Shown: positions 6,149 through 45,601 of the stretch, in pieces
Position numbering within the stretch: the stretch's first letter is position 1
How the letters are laid out: each line of letters starts with the position of its first letter
Source: an uncultured Chloroflexia bacterium
GTDB lineage: Bacteria > Chloroflexota > Limnocylindria > Limnocylindrales > CSP1-4
Length of the DNA stretch: 64,000 nucleotides
Reading direction: 5' to 3'
Assembly (NCBI GenBank): GCA_963731995.1
Contig: CAVSXV010000013.1
Coordinates: forward strand, 227,310-291,309
Made by a program: the position numbers and the translations under genes
The notes under the pieces: generated by a model
Databases searched by the model: none
What the model was told of the DNA's origin: nothing
The model's input: only the letters and a program-made list of their open reading frames with translations

Positions 6149-6257
6149 CTGGTCGCCGCAGGGTTGCTCGCCGGAGGTGGTGCTGCTCGCGGTGGGCCTG
6201 GTCGCCGTGGGGTTGCTCGCCAGACGTGGTGCAGCGCGCGGTGGGTCTGCTCGTGAG
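6149..6257. repeat. 49-bp tandem repeat, 2 copies plus a partial third
   Basis: 6149-6197 versus 6198-6246 are 42/49 identical by hand alignment. The next 11 nt restart the unit. Confidence 0.85.
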
Positions 6258-6392
6258 AGAAGCAAACGCGACGGGCCAGCGGCCGGATCTGCCGTCCTCG
6301 TTCGCCTTGCGAGCAGGATCGGCAACGCTGTTCACGACACGAGCAGAAGGCGCCGATCCGGGTGCCGCCCCGTCGAGATCGCTCACGGGGCG

Positions 6393-6560
6393 AGCAGCCG
6401 CGGCCGACGAGCGGAGGCACTCGGCCGGCGGAAGGGAGACACTCGGCCGGCGAACGGCGGCAGACCCTCGGCCGGCGGAAGGGAGACACTCGGCCGCCGA
6501 ACGGAGACCCTCGGCCGCCAGCAGCCGCGGCCGACGACGCGAGACCCTCGGCCGCCGGTT
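6393..6560. repeat. array of six GAGAC(A/C)CTCGGCCG(G/C)CG-like motifs nested in a ~47-bp repeat
   Basis: CTCGGCCG cores start at 6420, 6442, 6467, 6489, 6510 and 6547. AGCAGCCGCGGCCGACGA occurs at 6393 and 6520. Confidence 0.85.
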
Positions 6561-6593
6561 GACGCGACCATCGCCGGCCGCGACCATCGGCAG

Positions 6594-9200
6594 GTGACGA
6601 CCCGGGCGAACGTGAACGCACACAGCCGGCTGCCCTCCGGCGTGGTCACCTTCCTGTTCACCGACATCGAAGGCTCGACGCGCCTTTCGCAGTCGCTCGG
6701 CGAGGCGTTCCCCGAAGTCATCGATCGTCACCACGCGCTCATGCGCAGGGCCATCACCGATGGCGGCGGCACCGTGATCTCCACCGAGGGCGACGCGTTC
6801 TTCGCGGTCTTCGTCGATCCGCTCGAGGCGGTCGTGGCCGCAGCCGACGCACAGCGCCACCTCGCGCGCGAAGCCTGGCCGCGAGGACCGGCGGTGCGCG
6901 TACGGATGGGCCTGCACACCGGCCTCGCGCGGCGCGGTGGCGACGACTATGCCGGGGTCGAGGTCAATCGCGCGGCACGCATCTCGGGCGCGGGTCACGG
7001 CGGGCAGGTGCTGGTCTCCGCGAGCACTGCCGGCCACGTCGCGGACACCCTCCCCGACGGACTCGGGCTGCGCGATCTCGGCGCCATCGTGCTCAAGGAC
7101 TTCGAGGTCGGCCAGCGCATCTGGCAACTCGAGATCGCGGGGCTGCCGCACGAGTTCCCGCCCCTGCGTGCCGTACGCCCGGGCCGTCTGCCCCAGCCAC
7201 TCACCTCGTTCCTCGGTCGGGACGAGGTCGATCGTACCGCGCGCCTCGTGCGCGAGCGACGGCTGGTCACACTCACCGGACCGGGCGGCACCGGCAAGAC
7301 ACGCGTTTCGATCGAGGCGGCGCGTGAGCTGCAGCCGGAGTTCGCCGGCGGCACCTGGTTCGTGCCGCTCGAGACGATCCGCGACCGCGCCCTGGTGTTG
7401 CCCGAGATCGCCGACCAACTGGGCATCGCGGCCAAACCGGGCCAGCCGCTGCTCGAGAGCGTGGCCAGGGCCGTCGGTGACAGCCCGACCTTGCTGCTGC
7501 TCGACAACCTCGAGCAGGTGGTGGCAGCCGGCCCGGAACTCGCGGGCCTGCTGCAGTCGACACCTGGCCTGCACATCCTCGCGACCAGTCGCGAGCCACT
7601 CCGGATCGAAGGCGAGCAGGAGCTGCCGGTGCCGGTGCTGGACGGCGACCTGGCGGTCAAGCTGTTCATCGAGCGCGCCCGGCAGGTGCGCCCCGACCTC
7701 GACCCCGACGCGGCTGAACGCGAGCAGCTGCGCGAGCTGGTACGACGCCTCGACCACCTGCCCTTGGCCATCGAGCTGGCGGCTGCGCGCGCACGACGGC
7801 TCAGCGTCGCCGCGCTTTGCCAGCAGGTCCCGGCCTCGCTCGCCGACCTGGGCTCGGGACGACGGGATGCGGCCGATCGCCAGCGGACCCTGCGCGGCGC
7901 GGTGGCCTGGAGCCATGAGCTGCTCGACGACGGTGAGCGCCTGACGTTCGACCGCTTCGCGGTCTTCTCGGGGGGAGCCGAGCTCGGGCAGGTCGGTCCC
8001 GTCATCGATCCGGAACGTCCTGCCCACGAGATCCTTGACGATCTTGAGTCGCTGGCGGACAAGAGCCTGCTGGTCATCAGTGACGGCTCCCACGATGTTC
8101 CACGGGCCCGCATGCTCGAGACGATCCATGCCTATGCTGCGGAGCGCCTCGAGCAGGATGTGCAAGCGACAGCGATCAGGGCGCGGCACGCCCGCGCCTT
8201 CCTCGAATTCAGCGAGACCATCGAACCCGAGCTCAAGAGCGACCGGTCCGATGCCGCGCTCGCGCGCGCCGAGGCTGAACACGACAACATCCGTGCGGCA
8301 CTCGATTGGGCGCTCGAGCACGACCCTGCGCTGGGTCTGCGCATCGGCGGCGCCATCTGGCGCTTCTGGCAGCAGCGATCCCACCTCGAGGAAGCGCAGC
8401 GGCGGCTCGAAGCCCTCCTCGATGCGGCCGACCGAGAAGCGGATCCATGCGCGACCGGCCGAGGCTACACGGCGCTCGGCGGGACCCGCTACTGGCAGGG
8501 CGACTACGAGACCGCCCAGCTGGCCTACGAGCGCGCCGTCGATCACTACCGCACCTGCGGCGATCAGCGCGCCCTGGCAGGTGCGCTCTACGACCTCTCG
8601 TACCCGGTCGCCTTCCGCGGTGACCATGCGGGCGGGAGGGAGCTCAACGAGCAGAGCCAGCGCATCTTCGAAGCCATCGGCGACCGGGCGGGGATCGCCC
8701 TCGTGAAGGAGGGGCAGGCCTTGCTGGCGGTGATGGCCGGTGACTACCGACGGGCGCGCAGCCTGCAGTCCGACGTGATCGACTACGTTCGCTCGAGCGG
8801 CGGACTGTTCCAGCTCTCGGACAACCTCGGCCTGCTGGTCGTCATCGAGTCCCGGCTCGGACAGATCGCGGAGGCACGGGCCCACCTTGACGAGATGCGG
8901 GAGCTGCAGCGCCGTCTGCGTGATCGCTCGGGCCTGGCGGCGGCGCTGGAGGTCCGCGCCGTGCTGGCGGTCAGCGAGGGCGACGATGAGACGGCGGCCC
9001 TGTGCGCCGGCGCGCTGCAGGGTATACGCGACACGGGTGCCGGCACGCTGGTGCCATCCGAGACCTTGGACTTCTACGACGTGTCGGACGTGGCTCGTGA
9101 ACGGCTTGGGCAACGCTACGAGGACTTCTTCGAGGCCGGGCGTGCGCTGGCCCCCGAAGAGGTCTTCCTGACCGATGGCCTGGCGGCGGACCTCGCTTGA
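6594..9200 (+). CDS. class III adenylate/guanylate cyclase domain fused to a STAND (NB-ARC-like) ATPase and C-terminal TPR repeats
   Basis: VVTFLFTDIEGSTRL..GDAFFAVF..GLHTG..GVEVNRAARI (cyclase). LTGPGGTGKTRV Walker A at 7278-7301, LLLLDNLEQV Walker B-like, then long helical repeats (YDLSYP, AYERAVDHY). Start is uncertain: GTG 6594 is chosen, while the track ORF opens at 6177 inside the repeat tract. Confidence 0.85.
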   Translation: MTTRANVNAHSRLPSGVVTFLFTDIEGSTRLSQSLGEAFPEVIDRHHALMRRAITDGGGTVISTEGDAFFAVFVDPLEAVVAAADAQRHLAREAWPRGPAVRVRMGLHTGLARRGGDDYAGVEVNRAARISGAGHGGQVLVSASTAGHVADTLPDGLGLRDLGAIVLKDFEVGQRIWQLEIAGLPHEFPPLRAVRPGRLPQPLTSFLGRDEVDRTARLVRERRLVTLTGPGGTGKTRVSIEAARELQPEFAGGTWFVPLETIRDRALVLPEIADQLGIAAKPGQPLLESVARAVGDSPTLLLLDNLEQVVAAGPELAGLLQSTPGLHILATSREPLRIEGEQELPVPVLDGDLAVKLFIERARQVRPDLDPDAAEREQLRELVRRLDHLPLAIELAAARARRLSVAALCQQVPASLADLGSGRRDAADRQRTLRGAVAWSHELLDDGERLTFDRFAVFSGGAELGQVGPVIDPERPAHEILDDLESLADKSLLVISDGSHDVPRARMLETIHAYAAERLEQDVQATAIRARHARAFLEFSETIEPELKSDRSDAALARAEAEHDNIRAALDWALEHDPALGLRIGGAIWRFWQQRSHLEEAQRRLEALLDAADREADPCATGRGYTALGGTRYWQGDYETAQLAYERAVDHYRTCGDQRALAGALYDLSYPVAFRGDHAGGRELNEQSQRIFEAIGDRAGIALVKEGQALLAVMAGDYRRARSLQSDVIDYVRSSGGLFQLSDNLGLLVVIESRLGQIAEARAHLDEMRELQRRLRDRSGLAAALEVRAVLAVSEGDDETAALCAGALQGIRDTGAGTLVPSETLDFYDVSDVARERLGQRYEDFFEAGRALAPEEVFLTDGLAADLA

Positions 9201-9934
9201 GCTCCACCCGTGGCCGTGCCTACGTCGGCACCAGCGGCTTCTCGTACCCTGGGTGGGTGCCCCGCTTCTATGCGCCGGGCAAGGCCAGCCGCAAACTGCT
9301 CGCGGCCTACGCCACCCGGCTGCCCGCGGTGGAGCTCCATAACACCTTCTTCCGACGGCCGAACGAGCAGCAGATCCAGAAGTGGATGCGCGAGACCGGT
9401 CCCGACTTCCGCTTCTGTCCCAAGGCCCAGCGATCGACCTCCTGGCGGGCCTTCGGCGAGCCCGACCCGACCGAGTCGATCCGCTGGCTGACCGAAGCCC
9501 TCGAGGGCTTCGGGGAGCGGCTCGGCAGCGTGCTGCTATCGCTGCGGGCCACGGTCCAACGCGACGACGAGACGCTCGAACGAGCGCTGTCCGCCTGGCC
9601 CACCGCGGTGCCGCTGGCCCTCGAGCTGCTCCATCCGAGCTGGCATGTCCCAGCCGTTCGAGAGCGAGCCGCGCAGCATCGAGTGACCCTGGTGGCGACC
9701 GACCTCGAGGGCCGCGACGAACCGAGCCTGCACGACGGCGGCGGCTTCACCTACCTGCGGTTGCGCCGAACGGCTTACACCGACGCTGACATCGAACGTT
9801 GGGCGACACGGCTGGAGGCGATGCTGGCTGCTGGGACCGATGTCTTCGTCTTCTTCCGCCACGACGACGACGGGCAGATGGCGCTCCAGGCCGAAGCCAT
9901 GCTGGGACGCTTGTCGGCCTTCGTGGGACGGTGA
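9197..9934 (+). CDS. DUF72 family protein (YecE-like)
   Basis: GRAYVGTSGFSYPGWVPRFY..LPAVELHNTFFRRP..FRFCPKA. TTG start overlaps the cyclase stop by 4 nt. Confidence 0.8.
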   Translation: MSSTRGRAYVGTSGFSYPGWVPRFYAPGKASRKLLAAYATRLPAVELHNTFFRRPNEQQIQKWMRETGPDFRFCPKAQRSTSWRAFGEPDPTESIRWLTEALEGFGERLGSVLLSLRATVQRDDETLERALSAWPTAVPLALELLHPSWHVPAVRERAAQHRVTLVATDLEGRDEPSLHDGGGFTYLRLRRTAYTDADIERWATRLEAMLAAGTDVFVFFRHDDDGQMALQAEAMLGRLSAFVGR

Positions 9935-10007
9935 CCTCGACGGCGTAGGATGGGAGCACTTCCCCGCTTTCGAGACACATCGCGCCCTGCGCGCGCAAGG
10001 AGACGCC

Positions 10008-10457
10008 ATGAACGCACCCGACGAGACCGTCGCCAAGGCCCTGCAGTCCACGCTCGCGGAGCTCATCGACCTGGCGCTGCTGGGCAAGCAGGCCCACTGG
10101 AGCGTGGTCGGGCCGCAGTTCCGCTCGGTCCACCTCGAGCTCGATGAGATCGTCGACCTCGCGCGCATCTCGTACGACCGCGTGGCCGAGCGCCTGGCCA
10201 CCATCGGCGTGGCGCCCGATGGCCGTGCCGAGACGGTCGCCAACACCAGCGAGCTGCCGCCCTTCCCCGAAGGCTTCGTGCCCGCCACCGAGACCGTGCA
10301 GCGCGTGACCCAGTCGATGGACACGATCGCTCTGCGACTCAAGGAGCGGATCGTCGCGATCGGCGACGACGACGCGGTCAGCCAGGACATCCTCATCGGC
10401 ACCACTGATGAGATCGAGAAGGCTGCCTGGATGCTGCGTTCGCAGCTGACGATGTAG
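10008..10457 (+). CDS. dps: Dps-family DNA-protection/ferritin-like protein
   Basis: LIDLALLGKQAHWSVVGPQFRSVHLELDE. ATG 10008 is preceded by AAGGAG. The track ORF start 9840 overlaps DUF72. Confidence 0.9.
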   Translation: MNAPDETVAKALQSTLAELIDLALLGKQAHWSVVGPQFRSVHLELDEIVDLARISYDRVAERLATIGVAPDGRAETVANTSELPPFPEGFVPATETVQRVTQSMDTIALRLKERIVAIGDDDAVSQDILIGTTDEIEKAAWMLRSQLTM

Positions 10458-10692
10458 CCACCGGCGCGAGGTGCGCCGACCAAGACGACGAGCGGCGTCC
10501 ACCATCGGAGTGGGCGCCGTTGCCGTTTGCGCAGCTCTTGGTGTGGCTTCTGGGCATGGGCCATGGCTCCCGCGGCCAGCGGCGCGGTGGGAGCAGCGCC
10601 TCGCGGCACCGATCGTGCCCCGTTCCTTCGGCGCGGGGATGGACCGGCCGGGACCGACATTCCACGATGGGTGCGGGAAGTGCAGTAGCGCC

Positions 10693-10720
10693 TTGACAAC
10701 GGAGGGCTCGGTGCTATCCT
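10693..10720 (+). promoter_or_regulatory. sigma-70-type promoter candidate for the BMC operon
   Basis: TTGACA (10693-10698), 16-nt spacer, TATCCT (10715-10720), about 30 nt upstream of the SorC start. Confidence 0.5.
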
Positions 10721-10748
10721 CGCCACATATGAGCAGTAGTCTGCACAA

Positions 10749-11702
10749 ATGAGCATGCCAACCCAGATGGGCGACACGCGCCTGATGCTTCGTGCTGCCC
10801 AGCTCTACTACCACGGAGACCTGACCCAGGACGCGGTCGGCAAGCGCCTCGGCGTCAGCCGCTTCAAGGTGGGCCGGCTGCTCGACCGGGCCATCCGTGA
10901 GCAGGCGGTACGCATCGAGATCGTCCATCCGGCCGCACGGCTGGTGGCCCTCGAGGACGCACTCGTCGAGCGCTTCGGCCTGGACGACGCGGTGGTCGTC
11001 GATGTCCCCGCCCCCGAGGATGAACAGCTCGCCCGTGAGCGTGTGGCCGCGGCGGCCGCAGAACTGCTCACCGTGATCGGCCCGTCGGGCGTCATCGGCG
11101 TCTCCTGGGGTCGCACCATGATGGAGCTGGCGGCCCGCCTCCAACCCGGCTGGACCAGCGCCGACCAGATCGTCCAGCTCAACGGCGCCATCAGCCGCTC
11201 CGCCCAGCCCACGCGCTACCAGGAGGTCGTCGAGCGCTTCGGGACCACCACCGGCGCCGCCATCCAACTGATGCCCGCGCCGGCCATCGTGGGTACACCA
11301 GAGCTGCGTGCGGCACTCGAGGCGGACCCCTCGGTGGCCAGACCGCTCAAGGCCGCCCGCCACGCCGGCAGCGCCGTCTTCGGCATGGGTGTCATGGGTG
11401 CGGAGTCCGTGCACGTGGCTTCGGGCTACCTCGACCGCGGTGACCTGCAGCGCCTGACCAGGGCCGGCGCCGTCGGGGACGTGCTCGGCCGCTTCATCAC
11501 GGTCGAGGGCCAGGTCGCACTGCCCTCCCTCGACGAACGCACGGTCGGCTTGCCCCTCGGCGAACTGTGCGGCAAGCACACGGTCGGCCTCGCTGCCGGC
11601 CCCGGTCGCGGCCCGGTCGCCGTCGGAGCCCTGCGCACGGGCTGCATCAAGAGCTTCGTGACCGACGAGGCCACGGCCGAGTGGGTACTCGCACATGACT
11701 GA
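10749..11702 (+). CDS. SorC/DeoR-type sugar-phosphate-binding transcriptional regulator
   Basis: N-terminal HTH LTQDAVGKRLGVSRFKVGRLL plus a SorC-type effector domain (GVSWGRTM..VVQLNG). Overlaps rpiB by 8 nt. Confidence 0.85.
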   Translation: MSMPTQMGDTRLMLRAAQLYYHGDLTQDAVGKRLGVSRFKVGRLLDRAIREQAVRIEIVHPAARLVALEDALVERFGLDDAVVVDVPAPEDEQLARERVAAAAAELLTVIGPSGVIGVSWGRTMMELAARLQPGWTSADQIVQLNGAISRSAQPTRYQEVVERFGTTTGAAIQLMPAPAIVGTPELRAALEADPSVARPLKAARHAGSAVFGMGVMGAESVHVASGYLDRGDLQRLTRAGAVGDVLGRFITVEGQVALPSLDERTVGLPLGELCGKHTVGLAAGPGRGPVAVGALRTGCIKSFVTDEATAEWVLAHD

Positions 11703-12276
11703 GCCACGGACACCATCGGCGGATGAGGTACGAGCCCTGGTCCGGCGCATCGTCGACCAGACACTGGAGGCCGACCCCGGACCCGCTCCCGCAGCCGAGG
11801 GCCGAACCGGCGTGGCCATCGCCGGCGACCACGGGGGCTGGCGCCTGAAGGACGCTATCCGGACGTGGCTCGAGGAGCACGGGTACACCGTGCGCGACTG
11901 CGGCACCCACAGTGACGAGGCGGTCGACTATCCGGACCTCGCTCTCGCGGTGGCCCAACTGGTCGCCGACGGTACCTGCAGCTGGGGCATCGTCGTGGAT
12001 GGCGCCGGCATCGGCTCAGCCATGGCGGCCAACAAGGTGCCCGGCGTGCGTGCCGCCAACTGCCACGACATCTCGTCTGCTCGCAACAGCCGCGAGCACA
12101 ACTACGCCAACGTGCTGACACTGGGTTCGGGCTTCCTGGGCACCGCACTGGCGCTCCAGGTGGTCGAGACCTGGCTGGACACCGACTGGGGCGCCGAGCG
12201 CCACGGCCGCCGTGTCGACAAGATCACGGCCATCGAACGCAGCTACACCGGTGTCCCCGGGGGAAAGGACCGATGA
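11695..12276 (+). CDS. rpiB: RpiB/LacA/LacB-family sugar-phosphate isomerase with ~38-aa N-terminal extension
   Basis: [38 protein letters not shown]. The extension contains [17 protein letters not shown]. Confidence 0.9.
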
Positions 12277-13157
12277 CTGACTCCAGCAACGACCGCGACG
12301 CGCTCGTGGAGGCCATCACCCGAGAGGTGCTCGCCGCCCTCGGCACGGGCGCTGCCCAGAGCGGGGACGACCCCTGTGCCGGCTGCCTGCGGAGCTGCGC
12401 CTCGGACTGCGCCACCAAGGTGCGCTCGCTCATGGCTGAGGGCGCCGATCGCATCGAATACCACGGTCCTGCGGCCGACGTGCCCCTCGACCTCGCGCGC
12501 TACATCGACCACACGCTCCTGAAGCCCGACGCCAGCGCCGCCGATATCGACAAGCTCTGCGACGAGGCCGCCCAGCACGGCTTCGCCTCGGTCTGCGTGA
12601 ACCCCACCTGGGTGCGCCGTGCTGCGGTCCGGCTACGTGACACAGACGTGGCGGTGGCCTCGGTCATCGGGTTCCCCTTCGGGGCCACCCCCTCGGACGT
12701 GAAGGCCTTCGAGGCTCGCCGGGCCTGCCGCGACGGCGCTCGCGAGATCGACATGGTCATCAACATCGGCGCCCTCAAGAGTGGTGACTTCGAGCTCGTG
12801 CGGTCGGACATCGCACGTGTCAGCGACGCCTGCCACGAGTCGGGCGCCATCAACAAGGTCATCATCGAGGCGGCGCTGCTCTCCGACGCGGAGAAGATCA
12901 TCGCCTCGCGCCTGGCGAAGGAAGCCAGGGCAGACATGGTCAAGACCTCGACCGGCTACGCCAAGGGCGGAGCCACCATCTACGACGTCGCGCTCATGCG
13001 CGAGACGGTCGGACCCAGGATGGGCGTCAAGGCAGCCGGCGGCATCCGCACGGCTGAGGATGTACAGGAGATGATCGCGGCCGGTGCCACCCGCATCGGT
13101 GCCTCGGCCGGCGTCAAGATCGTGAGCGGACAGGGAGGCGCCAGTGGCGGGTATTGA
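12273..13157 (+). CDS. deoC: deoxyribose-phosphate aldolase (DERA) with ~75-aa N-terminal extension
   Basis: [51 protein letters not shown], collinear with short-type DeoC. ATGA overlap with rpiB. Confidence 0.9.
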
Positions 13158-13770
13158 GCTCCGGGCCTATTCATTCATCGACAGCCTGCAGGCCCAGTAC
13201 GCGGCCTTCCTGGGCACCGTCGCGCAGGGCTTCCTGCCCCTCGCGGGCGACGCCTCACTGTCGATCGAGATCTCGCCCGGCATCGAGATCAACCGACTGA
13301 CGGACATCGCCCTGAAGTCCACCAACGTCAAGCCGGGCATGCAGATCATCGAGCGCTACTACGGCATGCTCGAGATCCACTCGCCCGAGCAGTCCGAGGT
13401 GCGCGCTGCCGGCGCCGCCATCCTCGACGAGATCGGGCTCAAGGAGACCGACCGCCTCAAGCCGGTGGTGGCCTCGAGCCAGATCATCCGACGCATCGAC
13501 GACCACCAGGCGCAGCTCATCAACCGCACGCGCCACGGCCAGATGCTGATCCCGGGCCAGACCCTGTACGTACTCGAGATGGAACCGGCGGCCTACGCCG
13601 CGCTGGCGGCCAACGAGGCGGAGAAGGCGGCGGACATCAATGTCCTCGAGGTCCGCAACTTCGGCTCCATGGGTCGCATCTACCTCGGCGGCGAGGAGCG
13701 CGACATCGACGTCGGCTGGCGCGCCGCCCTGGCCGCGGTCGAGGGCCTGGAGGGTCGCGACGCGAAGTAA
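13144..13770 (+). CDS. BMC-T shell protein, CcmP/CsoS1D-like tandem permuted BMC domains
   Basis: [72 protein letters not shown]. Closely recalls the CcmP sequence from memory. 208 aa. Confidence 0.85.
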
Positions 13771-13831
13771 CGGCCGACCGATCCACACACGAGACCACTG
13801 AGCAAGGCACCGAACAAGGGAGAACGAACAG

Positions 13832-14146
13832 ATGGCAGAAGCTCTGGGAATGATCGAGGCCCGCGGGTTCACCGCGGTGGTCGAGGCCGCCGACGCGATG
13901 GTCAAGGCCGCCAAGGTCGAGCTGGTCAGCTATGAGAAGACCGGTGGCGGATACGTCACGGCCGTGGTCCGCGGTGACGTCGCGGCCGTCAAGGCCGCGG
14001 TCGATGCCGGCGTGCGCAACGCCGAGAAGGTCGGTGAGGTCGTGAGCAGTCACGTCATCGCCCGCCCGCACACCAACGTCGACCTCGTCATGCCGTTGGG
14101 TCGGCTGGCTGAGGCTGAGGCCGAGACGGGCAGCAAGAAGAAGTAG
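13832..14146 (+). CDS. BMC-H shell protein (PduA/EutM-like hexamer)
   Basis: [66 protein letters not shown] upstream. Confidence 0.95.
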
Positions 14147-14205
14147 CGACGGAACGGGCGTCGGGCCTCCGGCTCGGCGCCTAACCCGGAAGAGGCGGAC
14201 CAAGC

Positions 14206-14493
14206 ATGTTGCTCGGACGAGTGACCGGCACGGTCGTGGCTAGCCGCAAGGAACCACTGACCGAAGGCTGGAAGCTCCTCGTCGTGCGCCAGCTCGACGC
14301 GGAGGACAAGGAGACCGGCGGCTACGTCGTCGCGGCCGATGCGGTCGGGGCCGGCGTAGGCGAGGTCGTGCTGTACGCGAGCGGCAGCTCTGCGCGCAAC
14401 ACCGAGACCACCAGGGACAAGCCCTGTGACGCGGTGATCATGGCCATCGTCGACCAGTGGGAGGTCGAGGGAAAGGAGATCTACCGCAAGTAG
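14206..14493 (+). CDS. BMC-P vertex protein (EutN/CcmL family) 1
   Basis: [48 protein letters not shown]. Confidence 0.9.
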
Positions 14494-14505
14494 CGGGACC
14501 CTCAG

Positions 14506-15963
14506 ATGATGGACGAACGCGAGATCGCACAGATCATCGAACGGGTGCAGCAACGCCTGGCCACGGTCGACGGGGCACACCCGGGCAGGGGGCTGCAGGC
14601 GGGCGCCGAGCTGGCCAAGGCAGCCGAGGTCGAGCTGGGCGATGGCATCCATGCCACCGTCGACGACGCGGTGGCCGCGGCTGAGCGCGCCTTCCGCGCC
14701 TTCGGCGACCACGGGCTCGAGCGGCGGGTGACCGTCATCGAGGCGGTGCGTGCGGCCATGCTCGGGCACGCCGAGCAGCTCGCGCGCATGGCCCATCGCG
14801 AGACGGGCATCGGACGGTACGACGACAAGGTCGTCAAGAACCGCCTGGTCGCGACCAAGGCGCCGGGCCCCGAGGACCTCGAGGTCCAGGCCGTGTCGGG
14901 TGACAACGGCATGATGGTCACCGAGTGGGCGCCCTTCGGCATCGTCGGCGCCATCACACCGGTCACCAACCCCACCTCGACCATCATCAACAACACCATC
15001 AGCATCGTCAGCGCCGGCAACGCGGTCGTCTTCAACGCGCATCCGTCGGCCAAGGCCTGTTCGGCAGAGACGATCCGGCTCATCAACCGCGCCATCGTCG
15101 CTGCGGGCGGCCCACCTGACCTGGTCACGGGTGTCGCGATCCCCACCATCGACAGCGCCCGCGCCGTGATGAACCATCCCGGGGTGCGCGTGCTGCTCGT
15201 GACCGGTGGCCCGGGCGTCGTGCGCGAGGCGCTCAGGACGGACAAGCGGGCCATCACCGCCGGTCCGGGCAACCCGCCTGCGGTAGTCGACCAGACGGCG
15301 GACATCGAGAAGGCCGGCCGGGACATCGTGCGTGGCTCCTCCTTCGACAACAACATCGTCTGCATCGACGAGAAGATCGTGCTCGCGGTCGACACCATCG
15401 CGGACCGGCTGCTGCGCGCGATGAGCCAGAACGGCGCCTACCTGCTCAAGGAGCACGAGCTCAGGAAGCTGGAGCGGGTCATCTTCAAGGAGCTTGGTCC
15501 GCCCAACAAGCCGGGCGTGATGAACCCCGCCTGGATCGGGGTGGACGCCTCCAGGATCCTCGCCGAGATCGGGGTGCAGGCGGACCCGGAGCCGCGGCTG
15601 CTGGTGGCCGACGTGCCGCGCGAGCACAGCCTGGCCTGGACCGAGCAGATGATGCCGGTGCTGCCTGTCGTGCGCGTGGGCCACGTCGATACCGCCATCG
15701 AGCTGGCGGTGCGCATGGAGCATGGCTTCCGCCACACGGCCTCCATCCACTCCAGGGACGTCGAGACCATCACGCGCATGGCTCGCGCCATGAACTGCTC
15801 CATCTTCGTGGCCAACGGGCCCAACCTGGGCGGGCTGGGCGCTGACGGCGAGGGCTTCACCTCGTTCTCCATCGCCTCCCCCACCGGTGACGGCATGACC
15901 CGACCACGCACCTTCTCGCGCGAGCGTCGCGTGACCGTGGTCGGCGCGTTGAGGATCGTGTAG
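14506..15963 (+). CDS. CoA-acylating aldehyde dehydrogenase (PduP/EutE-like) with N-terminal amphipathic helix
   Basis: ALDH fold with SFDNNIVCIDEK catalytic-Cys context. N-terminus MMDEREIAQIIERVQQRLA. Confidence 0.9.
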   Translation: MMDEREIAQIIERVQQRLATVDGAHPGRGLQAGAELAKAAEVELGDGIHATVDDAVAAAERAFRAFGDHGLERRVTVIEAVRAAMLGHAEQLARMAHRETGIGRYDDKVVKNRLVATKAPGPEDLEVQAVSGDNGMMVTEWAPFGIVGAITPVTNPTSTIINNTISIVSAGNAVVFNAHPSAKACSAETIRLINRAIVAAGGPPDLVTGVAIPTIDSARAVMNHPGVRVLLVTGGPGVVREALRTDKRAITAGPGNPPAVVDQTADIEKAGRDIVRGSSFDNNIVCIDEKIVLAVDTIADRLLRAMSQNGAYLLKEHELRKLERVIFKELGPPNKPGVMNPAWIGVDASRILAEIGVQADPEPRLLVADVPREHSLAWTEQMMPVLPVVRVGHVDTAIELAVRMEHGFRHTASIHSRDVETITRMARAMNCSIFVANGPNLGGLGADGEGFTSFSIASPTGDGMTRPRTFSRERRVTVVGALRIV

Positions 15964-16556
15964 TGGCGGCGCGGCCCATCGAACCTGCGCTCGGGCTGCT
16001 GGAGCTGGAGTCCATCGCGGTCGGCATCGAGGTCGGCGATGCGATGGCCAAGCGCGCGCCGGTCGAGCTGCTGCGCGCGGGCACCGTCCATCCGGGCAAG
16101 TACCTCGTGCTCGTCGGCGGCGCCGTAGCCGATGTCGAGGAGGCGCTCGAGGCCGGGCGTGAGATCGGCGGGCTGTCGGTCCGCGATGTGACCTTCCTGG
16201 CCAACATCCACTCCGACGTCGTCGACGCCGTGCGCGGTGCGCGGCGGACGGCCCAGGCGGAGGCCCTCGGGATCATCGAGACGGCCACCATACCGGCGGT
16301 CATCCGCGCCGCCGACGCGGGGCTCAAGGGCGCCGGGGTGCGCCTCCTCGAGCTGCATCTCGCAGACGACCTCGGCGGCAAGGGCTACCTGCTCTTCGAC
16401 GGCACGGTCACCGACGTGGAGGCCGCGGTCGAGATCGGCGTCGATGCGGTCGGCGGGTCGCGCGGCACGCATTCACGGGTCATCGCCCAGCTGCACGGGG
16501 AGATGGCCGCTGAGCTGGCCGCCGACGGCCGTTTCGCGGCAAGGGTGAGGGAGTAG
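15963..16556 (+). CDS. BMC-T shell protein, PduT-like tandem canonical BMC domains
   Basis: ALGLLELESIAVGIEVGDAMAKRA..HPGKYLVLVGG.. and a second domain ALGIIETATIPAVIRAADAGLKGAGV. GTG start overlaps the ALDH stop by 1 nt. Confidence 0.85.
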   Translation: MAARPIEPALGLLELESIAVGIEVGDAMAKRAPVELLRAGTVHPGKYLVLVGGAVADVEEALEAGREIGGLSVRDVTFLANIHSDVVDAVRGARRTAQAEALGIIETATIPAVIRAADAGLKGAGVRLLELHLADDLGGKGYLLFDGTVTDVEAAVEIGVDAVGGSRGTHSRVIAQLHGEMAAELAADGRFAARVRE

Positions 16557-16558
16557 CG

Positions 16559-16849
16559 ATGCAGCTTGCACGAGTGACCGGCACGCTGGTCGCCAGCACC
16601 AAGGTTCCCGGGCTCGAGGGTGTCAAGCTGCTCATCATCCAGCCGCTCGATCGGCACGGACGCCCGCAGGGGACACCTGTGGTCGCCGCCGACGCGGTGC
16701 ACATGGCCGGTCCCGGCGAGCTGGTCTACTTCGTGGCCGCGCGGGAGGCGGCGCAGGCGCTCGAGGACACGTTCGTGCCCGTGGACCACGCCATCGTCGG
16801 CATCGTCGACGAGGTCACGACCCTGCCGGGCGCGGAGGACCAGGTGTGA
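16559..16849 (+). CDS. BMC-P vertex protein 2
   Basis: MQLARVTGTLVASTKVPGLEGVKLLIIQPLD..VVAADAVHMAGPGELV..HAIVGIVD. GAGGGAG RBS upstream. Confidence 0.9.
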   Translation: MQLARVTGTLVASTKVPGLEGVKLLIIQPLDRHGRPQGTPVVAADAVHMAGPGELVYFVAAREAAQALEDTFVPVDHAIVGIVDEVTTLPGAEDQV

Positions 16850-17115
16850 AGATCGGACGGGTGGTGGGCAACGTCGTCTCGACGATCAACACGCCCCACT
16901 TCGATGGACGCACGCTGCTGCTGGTCGACCTCCTGGCACCCGACGGGACGCCGTCCGGCGGCTACCAGATCGCGGTCGACAACATCGGTGCGGGCGCCGG
17001 CGAGACGGTACTCCTGCTCGACGAGGGCAACGGCGCGCGCCAGGTCCTCGACGCCCCCGGTGCTCCCATCCGCACGGTCGTCATCGGGATCGTCGACGAG
17101 GTCACCTCTGTCTGA
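16846..17115 (+). CDS. BMC-P vertex protein 3
   Basis: MKIGRVVGNVVSTINTPHFDGRTLLLVDLL..IAVDNIGAGAGETVLL..VVIGIVD. GTGA overlap with BMC-P 2. Confidence 0.9.
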   Translation: MKIGRVVGNVVSTINTPHFDGRTLLLVDLLAPDGTPSGGYQIAVDNIGAGAGETVLLLDEGNGARQVLDAPGAPIRTVVIGIVDEVTSV

Positions 17116-17138
17116 CGCGCCCGGCCCAGGCGGAGCCC

Positions 17139-19895
17139 TCAGGCCGCCACGGCCTCGGCTGGGCCTTCCGGGTCCGACGCGTCCATCACGCGGATCCGCA
17201 GCAGCTTCACCGCCTCTGCGACCACGAGGACGCCCAGCGACAGCACGATGCAGATGGCCCACTGGTCGATGGCCAGCCTGGTCGTGTCGAGCAGCCGGTT
17301 CAGCAGGCCCAGCTCGGCCGCGGCCACCGTCACCAGCAGGGCCAGGCCCACGCCCTTGAGCAGCGACGGGTTGTCCCGCAGGTCGAACTCGAAGATCGAG
17401 CGACGGGGATCGGCCGTCTCGAGCGCGAACCAGACGTTGGCCAGGCTGAAGGTGGTCAGGCCCATGGTCCGGCCCACGACCTCGCCGTACTCCGCGGTGG
17501 CCCACCAGATGACCCCCAGCGTGCCCGCGGCCATGACCAGCCCGATGGCCACGAGGTAGGTGAAGAGATTGGTGGGCAGGATGGGTCGCTCAGGGGGACG
17601 CGGTGGGTCGTCCATCAGGCCGCCACGCGACTTGCCATAGCCGAGGCCGATAGCCAGGAAGACCGTGACGGTGAAATTCACCCAGAGCGTCTGGACGGGC
17701 GTGAAGGGGACGCCCTCGGCGATGAAGAAGAGGCTGGCGCCAAGGAAGGTGGCGATGAAACCGAAGAGCCCGGCCATCTGGTAGCGGATATAGCGCAGCA
17801 GGTTGTCGTACAGGGCCCGGCCCAGCTCGACCGCCTTGACGATGGTGGAGAAGTCATCATCGGTCAGGATCATCACCGCGGCCTCCTTCGAGACCTCCGT
17901 GCCGGTGATGCCCATGGCCACGCCGATGTCGGCACGCTTCAGCGCCGGGGCGTCGTTCACCCCGTCGCCGGTCATGGCCACGATGTTGCCCTTGCGCTTG
18001 AGGATGTCCACGAGGCGGACCTTGTCCTCGGGGGCGACGCGCGCGATCACGCCGATGTCGTCGATCTCCCGCTCGAGCTCGTCGTCGCTCATGGCCTCGA
18101 ACTCGGCACCGGTGATGGCGCGACCGGTGATGCCCAGCTGGCGCGCGATGGCCTCGGCCGTGACCGCATGATCACCGGTGATCATGCGCACAGCGATGCC
18201 GGCGGCGTGAGCCGTGGCGATGGCGTCCCTGGCCTCGGGCCGCGGCGGGTCCACGATGCCGACGAGCGCCAGCAGCGTCAGCTCCGATACCAGCGGCAGC
18301 AGCTCGGCCGAGGGGTCGAAGGTGGCCGGATCGAGATCGCGCTGGGCGGTGGCCATGACGCGCAGGCCATCGCGGCCAAGGCGCTCGTTCTCGGCGAGGT
18401 AGGCCTCGCGGACCTCATCGAGCGGGACATGGCCGCCGCTGCCGTCATCGGCCGACGCGGCTCTCGCGAGGAGCTGGTCGGGGGCTCCCTTGACGTAGCA
18501 GCGGATGACGTCCCGGCCGTCCTCGTCCTGCATGGCGTGGAAGGTGGCCATGAACTTGTAGGCAGCGTCGAAGGGCACCTCGGCGAGGCGCGGGTAGCGC
18601 TCCCGTGTGAGCAGGGGGTCCACCCCGCCCTTGGCCGCCAACACGACGAGGGCACCCTCGGTGGGGTCGCCCACGAGCTCGCCGTCGCGGGCCACCGCGT
18701 CCGCGCACAGGGACATCGGCATCAGGTAGCGCTCGAGGGGCACCTCCGCCTCGCCCGCCGCGTGGGTGATGGCACCGGTGGTGGCGTAGCCCTTGCCACT
18801 GATGTTGTAGCGCCGGCCGACCACGGCCATCTGCACGGCCGTCATCTGGTTCAGCGTGAGGGTGCCGGTCTTGTCCGAGTTGATGGCCGAGGTGGAGCCG
18901 AGCGTCTCGACCGAGCGCAGACGCTTGACGATGGCACCGGCCTTGGCCAGCGTGGTGGTGCCGTTGGCCAGGATGGTGGTGACCACCGCCGGCAGGCCCG
19001 TGGGGATGGCCGCCACGGCGAAGGCGATGGCCGTCAGGAAGAGCTCATCGAAGGGCTGGTTGCGCCACAGGCCCAGGCCGATGGAGATGAGCAGCGCGAC
19101 GCCGGCGATGATGAGGATCTGGTTGGTGAGCGCGTTGAGCTGCTTGGTGAGCGGCGTGACGTCCGCGCTCGCGACTCCCAGCATGTCCGAGATATGGCCG
19201 ACCTCGGTGCTCATGCCGGTGCCGGTCACGAGGATGGTTCCGGCGCCACGCGTGACCTGGGTGTTCATGAAGCCGAGGTCGACACGGTCGCCCAGGGGGG
19301 CGTCGGCAGCCACGGGCTCGACCTGCTTGGGGACAGGCGCACTCTCACCGGTGAGGGCGGCCTCATCGATCTCGAGCGTGGCTGCCCGGACGATGCGCCC
19401 GTCGGCAGGGACGAGGTCACCGGCCTCGATCATGACGATGTCGCCGGGGACCAGCTCCTCCATGGGCAGCTGCTCGACCTGGCCGTCGCGCAGGACCCGG
19501 GCCTTGACCACCATCATCGACTGCAGCGCCGCCACGCTGGCCTCGGCCTTGCCCTCCTGGTTGAGTCCCATGAAGGCGTTGAAGAGCGTGAGCCCGAGCA
19601 GCAGCACGCCGGTCCAGAACTGGCCCGGCAGCAGCAGGCTGGCGATGCCGGCCACCAGCAGCACGATCTGCATCGGCTCGCGGTACTGGCGCAGGAAGGC
19701 CTGCCAACGCGGCTCCCTGGACGCGGCGGTCAGCTTGTTGGGCCCGTACTGGGCGCGGCGGGAGGTGACCTCGGAGCCCGATAGGCCACTGGTCACCTCG
19801 ACCTGCTGCCGGGAAAGCGCCTCCTCGACGCTCAGGCCGTGCCAGGCGACGTCGCTCGGCGGGATCGCCGCCGTGTTGGTTTGCGGTCCGGTCAT
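17139..19895 (-). CDS. P-type cation-transporting ATPase (P2, Ca2+/Mg2+-type)
   Basis: TGES, DKTGTLT, MITGDH and GDGVNDAPALKRAD motifs. 918 aa. Convergent with the BMC operon. Confidence 0.9.
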   Translation of the reverse strand: MTGPQTNTAAIPPSDVAWHGLSVEEALSRQQVEVTSGLSGSEVTSRRAQYGPNKLTAASREPRWQAFLRQYREPMQIVLLVAGIASLLLPGQFWTGVLLLGLTLFNAFMGLNQEGKAEASVAALQSMMVVKARVLRDGQVEQLPMEELVPGDIVMIEAGDLVPADGRIVRAATLEIDEAALTGESAPVPKQVEPVAADAPLGDRVDLGFMNTQVTRGAGTILVTGTGMSTEVGHISDMLGVASADVTPLTKQLNALTNQILIIAGVALLISIGLGLWRNQPFDELFLTAIAFAVAAIPTGLPAVVTTILANGTTTLAKAGAIVKRLRSVETLGSTSAINSDKTGTLTLNQMTAVQMAVVGRRYNISGKGYATTGAITHAAGEAEVPLERYLMPMSLCADAVARDGELVGDPTEGALVVLAAKGGVDPLLTRERYPRLAEVPFDAAYKFMATFHAMQDEDGRDVIRCYVKGAPDQLLARAASADDGSGGHVPLDEVREAYLAENERLGRDGLRVMATAQRDLDPATFDPSAELLPLVSELTLLALVGIVDPPRPEARDAIATAHAAGIAVRMITGDHAVTAEAIARQLGITGRAITGAEFEAMSDDELEREIDDIGVIARVAPEDKVRLVDILKRKGNIVAMTGDGVNDAPALKRADIGVAMGITGTEVSKEAAVMILTDDDFSTIVKAVELGRALYDNLLRYIRYQMAGLFGFIATFLGASLFFIAEGVPFTPVQTLWVNFTVTVFLAIGLGYGKSRGGLMDDPPRPPERPILPTNLFTYLVAIGLVMAAGTLGVIWWATAEYGEVVGRTMGLTTFSLANVWFALETADPRRSIFEFDLRDNPSLLKGVGLALLVTVAAAELGLLNRLLDTTRLAIDQWAICIVLSLGVLVVAEAVKLLRIRVMDASDPEGPAEAVAA

Positions 19896-19922: not shown

Positions 19923-20888
19923 CTACTTGCCCTTGGACTTCCTGGTCTTCTTGCCCTTCTTGCCTTTGCCGCGCTTGCTCGGTGTCGAGGACGTGCCCTC
20001 GGCCTCGAGCTCATCCCTGGCCGCCAGCAGCGCCTCCCGGGCCTCGTCCGAGACGGTCGGGTACTGCGGGTCGATCTCGATGAGCGCACCCGCGATGACC
20101 GCGGCGGCGGCCAACCGAGCGTAGGGCTTGTCATCGGCCGGGATCACGTACCAGGGCGCCCACTCGGTGCTGGTGTGGCTGAGGACCTCGCTGAAGGCCT
20201 TCTGGTAGTCGTCCCAATGGGCCCGTTCGCGCACATCCGAAGCGCTGAACTTCCAGTTCTTCTCGGGCTCGTCGATGCGATCGAGGAAGCGCCGTCGCTG
20301 CTCGTCCTTGCTCAGGTTCAGGAAGAGCTTGACGATGCGGTAGCCCTGGTCGCTCAGATAGCGCTCCCAGTCGTTGATCTCGCGGTATCGGCGCTTCCAG
20401 ATGTCGCCCTTGCGCGCAGAGGGCGGGAGCTGCTGCCGATCGAGGATCTCGGGGTGCACCCGCACCACCAGGACCTCCTCGTAGTGGGATCGATTGAAGA
20501 TGCCGATGTGCCCGCGGGCCGGCAGGCGGCGGGCGAAGCGCGACAGATAGTCGTGGTCAAGCTGCGCGGCCGAGGGCGCCTTGAAGCTGTGGACCTCCAC
20601 GCCCTGGGGGTTGACCCCGCTCATGACGTGGCGGATGGTGCCGTCCTTGCCGGCAGCATCGATCGCCTGCAACACCACCAGCAGCGAGTAGGTGTCCTGC
20701 GCCGCCAGCCGGGCCTGGTACTCGGCCAGCAGCTCGACGCCTTCGGCCAGCAGCTTTCTGGCCTCGGACTTGCTGCGTTCGCGATCCCCGCTCGTGTCGA
20801 GGTCGCCTGGCAGTCGCACCTTCCGGCCCGGCTTGACCTTGAACTGTGCGGCGAACCCGCGGACCCGTTCGGGATGGATCTCTGGCAT
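19923..20888 (-). CDS. polyphosphate kinase 2 family protein with Lys-rich C-terminal tail
   Basis: LVVLQAIDAAGKDGTIRHV..FNRSHYEEVLVVRVH..WAPWYVIPADDK. The tail is KRGKGKKGKKTRKSKGK. Confidence 0.9.
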   Translation of the reverse strand: MPEIHPERVRGFAAQFKVKPGRKVRLPGDLDTSGDRERSKSEARKLLAEGVELLAEYQARLAAQDTYSLLVVLQAIDAAGKDGTIRHVMSGVNPQGVEVHSFKAPSAAQLDHDYLSRFARRLPARGHIGIFNRSHYEEVLVVRVHPEILDRQQLPPSARKGDIWKRRYREINDWERYLSDQGYRIVKLFLNLSKDEQRRRFLDRIDEPEKNWKFSASDVRERAHWDDYQKAFSEVLSHTSTEWAPWYVIPADDKPYARLAAAAVIAGALIEIDPQYPTVSDEAREALLAARDELEAEGTSSTPSKRGKGKKGKKTRKSKGK

Positions 20889-21784: not shown

Positions 21785-22900
21785 ATGTCAACCAAGATCG
21801 ACACCGTCATCATCGGCGCCGGACAGGCGGGCCTCGCGACCGGGCACGAGCTCGCGAAGCAGGGGCTCACGTTCGAGATCCTCGACGGGCTCGCTCGCGT
21901 GGGCGACGCCTGGCGCGAGCGATGGGAAGGTCTGCGCTTGTTCACGCCAGCTCGCTATGACGGGCTTCCGGACATGGACTTCCCGGCTCCGCCGTCCTAC
22001 TACCCCACCAAGGACGAGGTCGCCGACTACCTTGAAGACTACGCCCGACAGATGGGCTTGCCGGTCCAGACCGGGGTCACCGTGCAGCGTCTCGCGGACG
22101 GGAGCCGCTCACGCTTCAGGGTCGAGACCGGCCAGGGGTCCATCGAAGCGGACCGAGTGGTCGTGGCAGCCGGTGCCTGGCGCGAGCCGCGCATCCCGGC
22201 GTTCGCCGCACGCTTGGCCGACGACATCGAACAATGGCACTCCAGCGCACTCCGCGTTCGCTCCCAGGTGCGTCCGGGTCGCGTGCTCGTCGTCGGGGCC
22301 AGCAACTCCGGGGCGGAGATCGCCTACCTGGTCGCACCTGAGCACGAGACCTGGCTGGCGGGACGTGACGTCGGCCAGGTGCCGTTCGACAAGTCGGGAC
22401 GGGTGGCGGGATTGATGGACCGCGTCCTCTGGTTCCTGGTCAACCGCGTGTTGACCGTGGACAACCCCCTCGGCCGAAGAGCCCAGCCGTCGGCGCGCGG
22501 GCGAGCCACCCCTCTCGAGCGGGTGCGCAAGCGCGATCTCGAGGCCGCAGGCGTCAAACGGATCCAGGGTCGCGTCGTGGATGCGCGGGATGGCCTCCCG
22601 CAGCTCGCAGACGGTGGGACTCTCGACGTCCGGACCGTGATCTGGGCGACCGGCTTTCGACACGACTATCCGTGGATCGAGTTGTCTCGACCGGCCATCG
22701 GAACGGACGGCTGGCCGGTCCACGACCGAGGGGTCTCCACACGCATCCCCGGGCTCACCTTCGTGGGCTTGCCGTACCAGACCTCGGCCGCGTCACCGCT
22801 GCTTGGGGGCGTCGGTCGTGATGCACGGTTCATCGCGCAACACGTAGCCGCGGACGCGCGCGCCACCAGCCGGTCGCTGGCACCCGAGGCGACAGCCTAG
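21785..22900 (+). CDS. FAD/NAD(P)-dependent flavoprotein monooxygenase-like oxidoreductase (CzcO-like)
   Basis: DTVIIGAGQAGLATG Rossmann motif plus a second VLVVGASNSGAEIA motif. Divergent from the HxlR gene. Confidence 0.8.
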   Translation: MSTKIDTVIIGAGQAGLATGHELAKQGLTFEILDGLARVGDAWRERWEGLRLFTPARYDGLPDMDFPAPPSYYPTKDEVADYLEDYARQMGLPVQTGVTVQRLADGSRSRFRVETGQGSIEADRVVVAAGAWREPRIPAFAARLADDIEQWHSSALRVRSQVRPGRVLVVGASNSGAEIAYLVAPEHETWLAGRDVGQVPFDKSGRVAGLMDRVLWFLVNRVLTVDNPLGRRAQPSARGRATPLERVRKRDLEAAGVKRIQGRVVDARDGLPQLADGGTLDVRTVIWATGFRHDYPWIELSRPAIGTDGWPVHDRGVSTRIPGLTFVGLPYQTSAASPLLGGVGRDARFIAQHVAADARATSRSLAPEATA

Positions 22901-27246: not shown

Positions 27247-27270
27247 GCGGTCCTCCTCGTGGCCTGGCGT

Positions 27271-28275: not shown

Positions 28276-28329
28276 GGGTGGATCTCCTGTCGAAGGAACG
28301 GCCGCCTCGCGGGCGCGTGGTGAGTGGGG

Positions 28330-29864: not shown

Positions 29865-29877
29865 TAGCATCGGGTCT

Positions 29878-35502: not shown

Positions 35503-35541
35503 CGCTCATCACCAACGCCTCTCTCCCAACGGCCGCAGAGA

Positions 35542-35571
35542 GGACCGGACCCACGTCCCGGGGTCCGGTCC
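35542..35571 (+). terminator. intercistronic stem-loop between pstS and pstC (possible attenuator or mRNA stabiliser)
   Basis: Perfect 11-bp stem GGACCGGACCC / GGGTCCGGTCC with an 8-nt loop, flanked by outer CGGCCG pairing. No U-tract follows. Confidence 0.5.
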
Positions 35572-35609
35572 TCCGGCCGTTCAGCCAAGACCTGTAGCGA
35601 GCGACCTCG

Positions 35610-36539: not shown

Positions 36540-36540
36540 G

Positions 36541-37494: not shown

Positions 37495-37496
37495 AC

Positions 37497-38414: not shown

Positions 38415-38424
38415 GGAGGCTGCC

Positions 38425-45599: not shown

Positions 45600-45601
45600 C
45601 G

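Follow-up and report, generated by a model that had tools for sequence, protein, structure and literature searches.

We describe a ten-gene operon for a bacterial microcompartment (BMC) at 10749-17115 of a 64,000-nucleotide stretch from an uncultured Chloroflexia bacterium (contig CAVSXV010000013.1; the whole stretch is called the window below). With a probability that we put at roughly 0.65, our findings suggest that it encodes a metabolosome for deoxyribose-5-phosphate (dR5P) of the sugar-phosphate-utilising subtype SPU3, and that its cofactors are most likely exchanged with the cytosol via BMC-Tdp, a double-stacking shell trimer with a gated pore. SPU systems are among the most widespread metabolosomes and are thought to let soil and sediment bacteria feed on deoxyribose from environmental DNA. 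We further report a conserved promoter with twin presumed operators, a cysteine stripe in the aldolase, a His at the pore of the second trimer (BMC-Ts) and nucleoside phosphorylase neighbours in about 20% of the related loci.

The operon, its relatives and its probable subtype

To judge from its conservation at the sequence level, the locus is a real, strongly conserved BMC operon composed of the following genes.

10749..11702, + strand: SorC/DeoR-family transcriptional regulator, 317 aa (PF04198, 1.2e-51)
11695..12276, + strand: RpiB-like protein, 193 aa (PF02502, 2.6e-50)
12273..13157, + strand: deoxyribose-5-phosphate aldolase (DERA), 294 aa including a 73-aa N-terminal extension (TIGR00126, 268 bits, cutoff 117)
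13144..13770, + strand: BMC-Tdp, CcmP-like double-stacking gated trimer, 208 aa (NF053796, 337 bits, cutoff 340)
13832..14146, + strand: BMC-H shell hexamer, 104 aa (PF00936, 4e-30)
14206..14493, + strand: BMC-P no. 1, vertex pentamer, 95 aa (PF03319, 9.5e-29)
14506..15963, + strand: CoA-acylating aldehyde dehydrogenase (AldDH), 485 aa (PRK15398, 613 bits)
15963..16556, + strand: BMC-Ts, PduT-like tandem-domain trimer, 197 aa (TIGR02526, 110 bits; PduT 3N79, 1e-35)
16559..16849, + strand: BMC-P no. 2, 96 aa (PF03319, 2.8e-25)
16846..17115, + strand: BMC-P no. 3, 89 aa, last gene, overlapping BMC-P no. 2 by 4 nt (PF03319, 6.2e-24)

A check of the open reading frames (ORFs) returned all ten on the + strand and at the coordinates that a first-pass annotation of the window had given, and the tight packing it had noted was borne out at the successive junctions: in order from the first, neighbours overlap by 8, 4 and 14 nt, stand 61, 59 and 12 nt apart, overlap by 1 nt, have 2 nt between them and, at the last junction, overlap by 4 nt. 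In this sequence of 69% GC, each of the ten shows a coding signature rich in GC at third codon positions. Gene identities, which come from Pfam and NCBIfam profile searches, agree with that annotation in every case: next to the regulator, the RpiB-like protein, DERA and the CoA-acylating AldDH, the rest are six shell proteins, namely three PF00936 proteins (one single-domain, two tandem) and three PF03319 proteins encoded within 4 kb. Domain searches likewise uphold the flanks it had named: genes for DUF72 and Dps-like ferritin proteins precede the operon, and a P-type ATPase gene converges on it from downstream.

Searching with the AldDH, we found 553 relatives among GTDB species representatives, and the best 80 of these 553 were inspected over ~21 kb each. 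They are mostly metagenome-assembled genomes (MAGs) labelled uncultured Chloroflexia or Candidatus Limnocylindrales/Limnocylindria, with AldDH identities of up to 90%, followed by Acidimicrobiia, Nitriliruptoraceae and Acidobacteriota (Sulfomarinibacteraceae) at 62-67%. Allowing for contig ends, the order RpiB-DERA-Tdp-H-P-AldDH-Ts-P-P is found in 80/80 loci, which rules out a chance arrangement. The SorC gene lies 5' of RpiB in Chloroflexota, and a TetR-family gene takes this place in five Acidobacteriota loci. Across phyla, identity is highest for shell proteins (Tdp 76-98%, BMC-H 77-97%), and clustering of flanking ORFs linked no other family to the operon in more than 19 of the 80 loci. 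The minimal form with three enzymes, six shell proteins and no recycling gene thus presents itself as a stable module that is horizontally shared across Chloroflexota (Limnocylindria), Actinomycetota and Acidobacteriota.

In the BMC catalogue of Sutter et al. (2021, Nat Commun, PMC8217296), SPU loci are split into seven subtypes, and the first-pass annotation was right to place the operon in this class. As that catalogue describes SPU3 (31 loci; Supplementary Data 2), the enzymes are just AldDH, pfam01791 and pfam02502, with N-terminal encapsulation peptides (EPs) on AldDH and the pfam01791 enzyme; the shell has one BMC-H, a BMC-P triplet, a CcmP-like BMC-Tdp and a BMC-Ts without pore Cys and without PduS; and host phyla include Chloroflexi, Actinobacteria and Acidobacteria. 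Every point in this published description is matched by the window locus, the BMC-P triplet by number and by its adjacent pair, no defining feature differs from it, and the phyla are those of our 80 relatives. Ribose-5-phosphate isomerase (RPI) and DERA are separate genes in the window, as in non-fused SPU3 loci. Since the shell-protein tree files of Sutter et al. hold no names matching SZUA-546, fen_1046, BMS3Abin02 or Acidimicrobiia, the assignment rests on features rather than on an accession. Whereas 31 loci were catalogued, there are now 553 AldDH relatives, and all 80 inspected share the window architecture. Hence, to our minds, the window locus is probably SPU3-type, an ordinary addition to a catalogued subtype whose published norm would account for what had looked anomalous. 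The accessible text of Sutter et al. 2021 and Dwyer et al. 2024 (see below) makes no mention of a SorC/DeoR regulator, twin operators or a DERA Cys stripe such as those of the window.

Other known systems fit less well. SPU2 (53 loci in the catalogue, PMC8217296) is described with just AldDH, pfam01791 and pfam02502 as enzymes, a BMC-P triplet plus an extra green-clade copy and a Ts pore Cys in 80% of loci; it is ruled out by the window having just three BMC-P and a Cys-less Ts. SPU6, the obvious Chloroflexi subtype, was studied in Chloroflexi bacterium GWB2_54_36 (Dwyer, Sutter and Kerfeld 2024, Commun Biol, PMC11585597) and, as published there, shares with the window a DERA with a ~70-aa N-terminal extension and the Asp/Lys/Lys residues, an RPI with an EP and a Cys-to-Asp change, RPI, DERA and AldDH as sole enzymes without a phosphotransacylase (PTAC), and a Tdp together with a BMC-P triplet. 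SPU6 is, however, described with a C-terminal EP on an AldDH of a different branch, a blue-clade Tdp (near EUT3), no BMC-Ts, a GntR/UTRA regulator and an EutQ-like protein of ~130 aa, whereas in the window the AldDH EP is N-terminal, the Tdp CcmP-like, a Ts present and the regulator of SorC type, and tblastn of the window found no EutQ homologue. We reject SPU6 on AldDH EP position, Ts presence and Tdp clade; an AldDH with an N-terminal EP and no C-terminal extension excludes it. The Haliangium ochraceum (HO) shell provides the best natural match in the Protein Data Bank (PDB) for the window BMC-H and the next Tdp matches after CcmP (T3 and T2), and it too has a BMC-P triplet and an N-terminal EP on AldDH. 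HO type II is nonetheless rejected, as the HO locus has two Tdp paralogues, no DERA or RPI in its main locus, an unknown function and a split into satellites, while the window has DERA and RPI in the main locus and one Tdp only. With the PDU/EUT core, finally, the operon has in common an aldehyde-generating signature enzyme next to a CoA-acylating AldDH, EP-tagged cargo and a BMC-H/T/P shell, yet it is without a linked PduL/Pta, alcohol dehydrogenase (ADH) or PduS-PduT Fe-S relay.

SPU6 is the sole bacterial SPU subtype for which we found biochemical data, and shells from an archaeal SPU-type operon self-assemble according to a 2025 preprint. The view in the first-pass annotation that the SPU class is defined only bioinformatically therefore has to be given up, because, as far as these published accounts go, SPU6 DERA and RPI have been assayed and archaeal SPU-type shells self-assembled.

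Enzymes with predicted packaging signals and shell proteins

The AldDH catalytic domain aligns over its full length with the R. palustris BMC AldDH 5JFL (1.6e-125) and keeps the catalytic Cys in SFDNNIVC, and AldDH orthologues of related loci share 48-51% identity with E. coli EutE, which is acetaldehyde-specific. Its N-terminal EP (aa 5-19, REIAQIIERVQQRLA) is a conserved amphipathic helix with the top hydrophobic moment in the protein; there is no C-terminal extension, the protein ending in the conserved catalytic-domain tail ALRIV. As EP-like helices stand at the N-terminus of all three enzymes, we predict that all of them are packaged.

By its retained active site the window DERA is a canonical enzyme: the Asp of DMVIN, the Lys of KVIIE and the Lys of VKTSTG are all kept, and the best PDB match is 8qps (1e-74). 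The SPU6 DERA has been purified and is active on dR5P, with kinetics that are unchanged by complex formation with RPI, as reported in PMC11585597. In the window enzyme the extension consists of an EP helix (aa 5-22), a variable Gly/Ala/Pro linker and a second helix (aa 34-55), and the EP helix is near-universal among orthologues, with R-x2-L-(V/I)-E-(A/T)-(I/V)-T-R-(E/Q)-V-L as its pattern. A wider search for DERA homologues gave close relatives alone, at identities of at least 72%. Public DERA entries P0212, P0213 and P0218 (241-246 aa) start ~50 residues late and so lose the EP-bearing extension, an annotation problem that Dwyer et al. 2024 likewise describe in their published account. Extra copies of the gene occur in a few relatives: a shorter tandem DERA lies between DERA and Tdp in L004 (7883-8563) and L016 (7881-8561), and a second, EP-less paralogue just downstream, beside purA, purB, purS and purQ, in L038 (13785-14681) and L043 (13932-14717).

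The second helix of the DERA extension bears Cys35, Cys38, Cys42 and Cys46 (window 12375-12413, aa 35-47). C-x2-C-x3-C is found in 62 of the 69 DERA orthologues, and all 62 of these have a fourth ligand, which, counted from the third Cys, is a Cys at +4 in 48 sequences and a His at +3 in 14; the stripe is absent in six Acidobacteriota loci and in the unclassified MAG L058. An AlphaFold2 model (51-sequence alignment; mean pLDDT, the program's per-residue confidence, 74.8, and low in the extension) puts the stripe on one face of the helix aa 34-55, at positions i, i+3, i+7 and i+11. As far as we found, Dwyer et al. (2024, PMC11585597) do not mention it in their main text. The stripe may form an inter-subunit metal or disulfide site in the core assembly; a redox role for it is speculative.

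That an RpiB stands beside DERA had struck the first-pass annotation as unexplained by the textbook pathway, and the puzzle is already discussed in print, where, in the account of Dwyer et al. 2024, a packaging role is favoured. In the window protein an EP-like helix (aa 7-21, again with the top hydrophobic moment in the protein) is followed by a Pro/Ala/Gly linker. The catalytic Cys is replaced by Asp (GIVVDGAG aligned to GIVICGTG(LG) of C. thermocellum), and the neighbouring second catalytic residue is changed too, from Thr to Ala; among 70 RpiB-like orthologues the Asp is conserved to at least 90%. The phosphate-binding and ring-opening residues (DH, HN, RHxRR) are kept and conserved. Dwyer et al. 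(2024, PMC11585597) report that all SPU RPIs have Asp at the position of the catalytic Cys (C66 in E. coli), and that the SPU6 RPI has negligible ribose-5-phosphate isomerase activity, forms a ~1:1 complex with DERA and has a typical EP. By analogy, the answer we favour is that the RpiB-like protein would mainly be a DERA-binding packaging partner and not a ribose-5-phosphate isomerase. We also considered a ring-opening helper that passes acyclic dR5P on to DERA, its His being kept and its isomerisation base lost, yet do not favour it because in the work of Dwyer et al. the RPI-DERA complex brought no kinetic gain.

Turning to the shell, BMC-Tdp has its best match in CcmP (4HT5, 2.6e-84), followed by H. 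ochraceum T3 and T2, with CsoS1D at 4e-52; it is by these similarity scores that we call it CcmP-like. Its Glu-Arg pair E69-R70 (IIERYYG), which aligns with that of CcmP and is conserved in 72 orthologues, is what we take to be the pore gate. For BMC-H, the best natural PDB match is H. ochraceum HO-5815 (9e-41), and the interface motifs KAAK and ARPH are present. BMC-Ts has no Cys at all and carries a His at the Fe-S pore position, HPGK (16086-16097, aa 42-45) as against CPGK in Fe-S-binding PduT types; GTvHPGkY is conserved in 76 orthologues. The three BMC-P are 33-46% identical pairwise. No. 1 is a distinct paralogue at 39-46% identity to the other two, and nos. 2 and 3, which are adjacent, are 33% identical; an adjacent pair within the BMC-P triplet is a general rule of the published SPU definition.

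Candidate promoter and operators, and the regulator

Upstream of, and into, the regulator gene lie three candidate control elements.

10693..10720, + strand: sigma-70-like promoter, TTGACA, 16 nt, TG-n-TATCCT (10/12 consensus matches, extended TG)
10722..10735, + strand: operator half-site 1, GCCACATATGAGCA, 14-bp imperfect palindrome directly 3' of the -10 element
10742..10755, + strand: operator half-site 2, TGCACAAATGAGCA, 20 bp from site 1 and overlapping the regulator start codon

The promoter is the sole site of such quality in 10300-17400, and with half-site 2 placed over the start codon of the regulator the leader would be very short or absent. Across 53 related loci the TTGACA and TAnnnT hexamers align, as do both palindromes (consensus TGCACAwATGaGCA). 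In the window this consensus matches twice, both times here, against 0.36 matches expected by chance; as 8 of 100 shuffles also gave two, it is the cross-locus conservation that carries the operator argument. We regard the twin palindromes as the presumed operators of the SorC regulator. SorC-family repressors bind bipartite operators as tetramers, in the form of a dimer of dimers (PMC11229326), and two tandem sites fit such binding.

Among solved structures, B. subtilis DeoR (8r7y, 2.6e-38), whose effector is dR5P (PMC11229326), comes closest to the regulator. Against the nearest NCBIfam model, that of the B. subtilis-type DeoR repressor, the regulator scores 209 bits and hence below the cutoff of 420. 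Where DeoR has Lys141 (QLKGG), the window has Asn (QLNGA; 11181-11183, regulator aa 145), and so do 51 of the 54 orthologues. We take this Lys141 to be the lysine that bonds covalently to dR5P. The Asn makes the effector of the window regulator uncertain and, together with the score below cutoff, leads us to call the protein a SorC-family, DeoR-like regulator rather than an equivalog. Likeness to the B. subtilis DeoR system with its dra-nupC-pdp regulon extends to SorC-family domain layout, an operon that contains DERA and a bipartite operator fitting a tetramer. In contrast to the DeoR operator, which consists of TTGAA-type sites at -60 to -21, the window has TGCACAwATGaGCA twice and 3' of the -10 element, a sequence unrelated to it, and unlike in B. 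subtilis, the window regulator gene heads the operon that is presumably under its control. At the other end, a terminator scan gave none convincing 3' of the last BMC-P gene, from which just 23 nt lead to the stop codon of the convergent ATPase gene, and Rfam and tRNA searches brought up no riboswitch or other RNA element anywhere in the window.

Cofactor turnover and genomic setting

Neither PduL nor an ADH is encoded in the 64 kb, just as the first-pass annotation had it. Our Pfam scan of ~50 other window ORFs found no PF06130, PF01515, PF00465, PF00107 or PduS/RnfC-type protein, nor any triose-phosphate isomerase, class II aldolase, nucleoside phosphorylase or phosphopentomutase. The sole dehydrogenase elsewhere in the window is a short-chain dehydrogenase/reductase (SDR) 34 kb from the operon, and the nearest loosely related genes, at 49.4-51.9 kb, are those for a uracil phosphoribosyltransferase, a PfkB kinase and the SDR. 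Probing the window by tblastn with E. coli EutG (an iron-containing ADH, Fe-ADH), EutD (Pta) and two PduL sequences, one validated against PDB 5CUO at 2.6e-69 and the other read from that alignment, gave no match; over 1.46 Mb (window and 80 loci) there was no PduL, Pta, Fe-ADH, EutQ or EutJ, while the EutE control matched in 81/81. PduL, Pta and Fe-ADH are missing within ~10 kb in the 80 relatives, and no PTAC or ADH domain occurs in the co-directional genes just 3' of the operon in these relatives. To be without linked recycling enzymes is a stable, lineage-wide trait, as the SPU3 catalogue entry says, and the first-pass annotation erred in calling it unusual, given that Sutter et al. 2021 describe both SPU2 and SPU3 without PTAC and ADH. 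Because there is no PTAC, ADH or PduS-PduT relay, private cofactor recycling as in PDU/EUT is impossible with linked genes. How cofactors turn over without PTAC, ADH and MNdh is a genuine question, already posed in the literature, and the first-pass annotation named the right three options for it: passage of cofactors across the shell, unlinked partners, or a different chemistry.

In the SPU3-type scheme that we prefer, the SorC/DeoR-type repressor would sit as a tetramer on the twin operators until released by a phosphosugar, and dR5P from DNA or deoxynucleoside breakdown would enter the shell. Cleavage by DERA, with the RpiB-like protein as its packaging partner, would yield glyceraldehyde-3-phosphate that exits the shell; the acetaldehyde formed with it would stay inside, to be converted by AldDH with CoA and NAD+ to acetyl-CoA and NADH. 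CoA/acetyl-CoA and NAD+/NADH would then be swapped with the cytosol via the ~14 Å gated pore of BMC-Tdp, an exchange we propose since the locus has neither a PTAC nor an ADH nor an MNdh-Ts Fe-S relay. It is a published hypothesis, resting on PTAC-less SPU subtypes that carry a Tdp: as Dwyer et al. 2024 (PMC11585597) put forward in their account, such subtypes typically have BMC-Tdp and acetyl-CoA may exit through it. A link of the operon to DNA-sugar and nucleoside catabolism comes from its neighbours in relatives. Pyrimidine-nucleoside phosphorylase (PF00591, PF02885, PF07831) and purine nucleoside phosphorylase (PF01048) are encoded 1-8 kb away in 16-18 of the 80 relatives (for example L047 12374-14876, L032 11374-13730 and L021 6416-8885), mostly downstream and convergent, accompanied by cytidine deaminase in 6 loci and by a conventional ALDH in 7.

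Several points weigh against this scheme. All SPU-enzyme biochemistry comes from SPU6 proteins, so the SPU3 model is one by analogy, and a BMC-Tdp pore that lets CoA or NAD through is hypothetical. The 64-kb Pfam scan found no nucleoside phosphorylase, phosphopentomutase or deoxyribokinase in the window. With Asn at the Lys141 position, the effector of the regulator may not be dR5P or may bind differently, e.g. non-covalently; the phosphate-binding and ring-opening residues kept in the RpiB-like protein may leave it able to act on another substrate; and since the source genome was searched over 64 kb, unlinked PTAC, ADH and MNdh genes may lie beyond.

This last point leads to a model in which the shell keeps a private cofactor pool after all, served by enzymes that are encoded elsewhere and recruited in trans, namely a phosphotransacylase with an EP and either an alcohol dehydrogenase or MNdh. 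Narrow BMC-H pores are generally held to exclude NAD, and satellite loci have been described for a number of BMC types, among them EUT modules in the case of SPU3, SPU6 and HO; moreover, our inspection was confined to 64 kb of the source genome and ~21 kb per relative. The BMC catalogue (PMC8217296), however, describes satellite loci as uncommon for SPU3, PduL, Pta and Fe-ADH were found in 0/80 related neighbourhoods, and BMC-Ts no longer has the Fe-S cysteine that an MNdh relay requires. In addition, the strict correlation between PTAC absence and Tdp presence, as far as published, suggests a different solution, and we regard recruitment in trans as unlikely.

Somewhat less probable still is a different chemistry, in which the RpiB-like protein would be an active isomerase or epimerase that uses its Asp as base on a rarer phosphosugar, and the DERA/RPI pair would work on another or an additional substrate. 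It could draw on the intact DH, HN and RHxRR residues, on the Glu base of M. tuberculosis RpiB and the broad specificities of RPIs reported in PMC11585597, on a window regulator without the lysine aligned to DeoR Lys141, and on RPI-DERA fusions in some SPU3 loci, again as published. Yet the window DERA is a canonical TIGR00126 member with all catalytic residues kept, its SPU6 orthologue cleaves dR5P with kinetics that the RPI complex leaves unchanged (as given in PMC11585597), and SPU5 is listed in the catalogue (PMC8217296) without any RPI. The loss of the second catalytic residue (Thr to Ala) in the RpiB-like protein and the nucleoside phosphorylase genes that adjoin the operon in relatives also speak against it.

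A long shot is that SPU3 manages redox and cofactors by a device not described so far, with the DERA ligand stripe and the BMC-Ts pore His as candidate parts; if these were to form inter-subunit metal or Fe-S sites, NADH electrons could leave the lumen without cofactor exchange. Decay of a fuller metabolosome locus into an incomplete piece without a working organelle, which missing canonical core enzymes in a lineage known from sequence alone might bring to mind, appears effectively excluded by ten intact ORFs with overlapping stop and start codons, a gene order identical in 80 loci from at least three phyla, Tdp and BMC-H identities of 76-98% and conserved catalytic, gating and EP residues, promoter and operators.

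With the SPU3-type reading preferred, the operon offers a clean natural test case for whether a metabolosome runs on cofactors that pass a gated BMC-Tdp pore or on a private recycled pool, and, as a defined ten-gene unit with predicted promoter and operator, it is suited to heterologous reconstitution.

A few observations concern the surroundings of the operon. The Dps-like ORF at 9840-10457 (205 aa as listed) overlaps the DUF72 gene by 95 nt; its orthologues have ~149 aa, so its true start is probably a Met near 10008. Further upstream, 6177-9200 encodes a 1007-aa signalling regulator that combines an adenylate/guanylate cyclase domain, an AAA ATPase and TPR repeats and that is not kept beside the BMC locus in relatives. 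Downstream, a dense phosphate/polyphosphate gene neighbourhood spans 19923-45647, which holds two phosphatases in addition to the following genes.

19923-20888: PPK2
22897-23847: Ppx/GppA
26023-29295: arginine deiminase pathway (arcA, OTC, carbamate kinase), embedded in the neighbourhood
29647-31983: PPK1
31890-33680: CYTH-CHAD protein
34453-39201: pstS/C/A and PhoU
43763-45647: histidine kinase/response regulator pair

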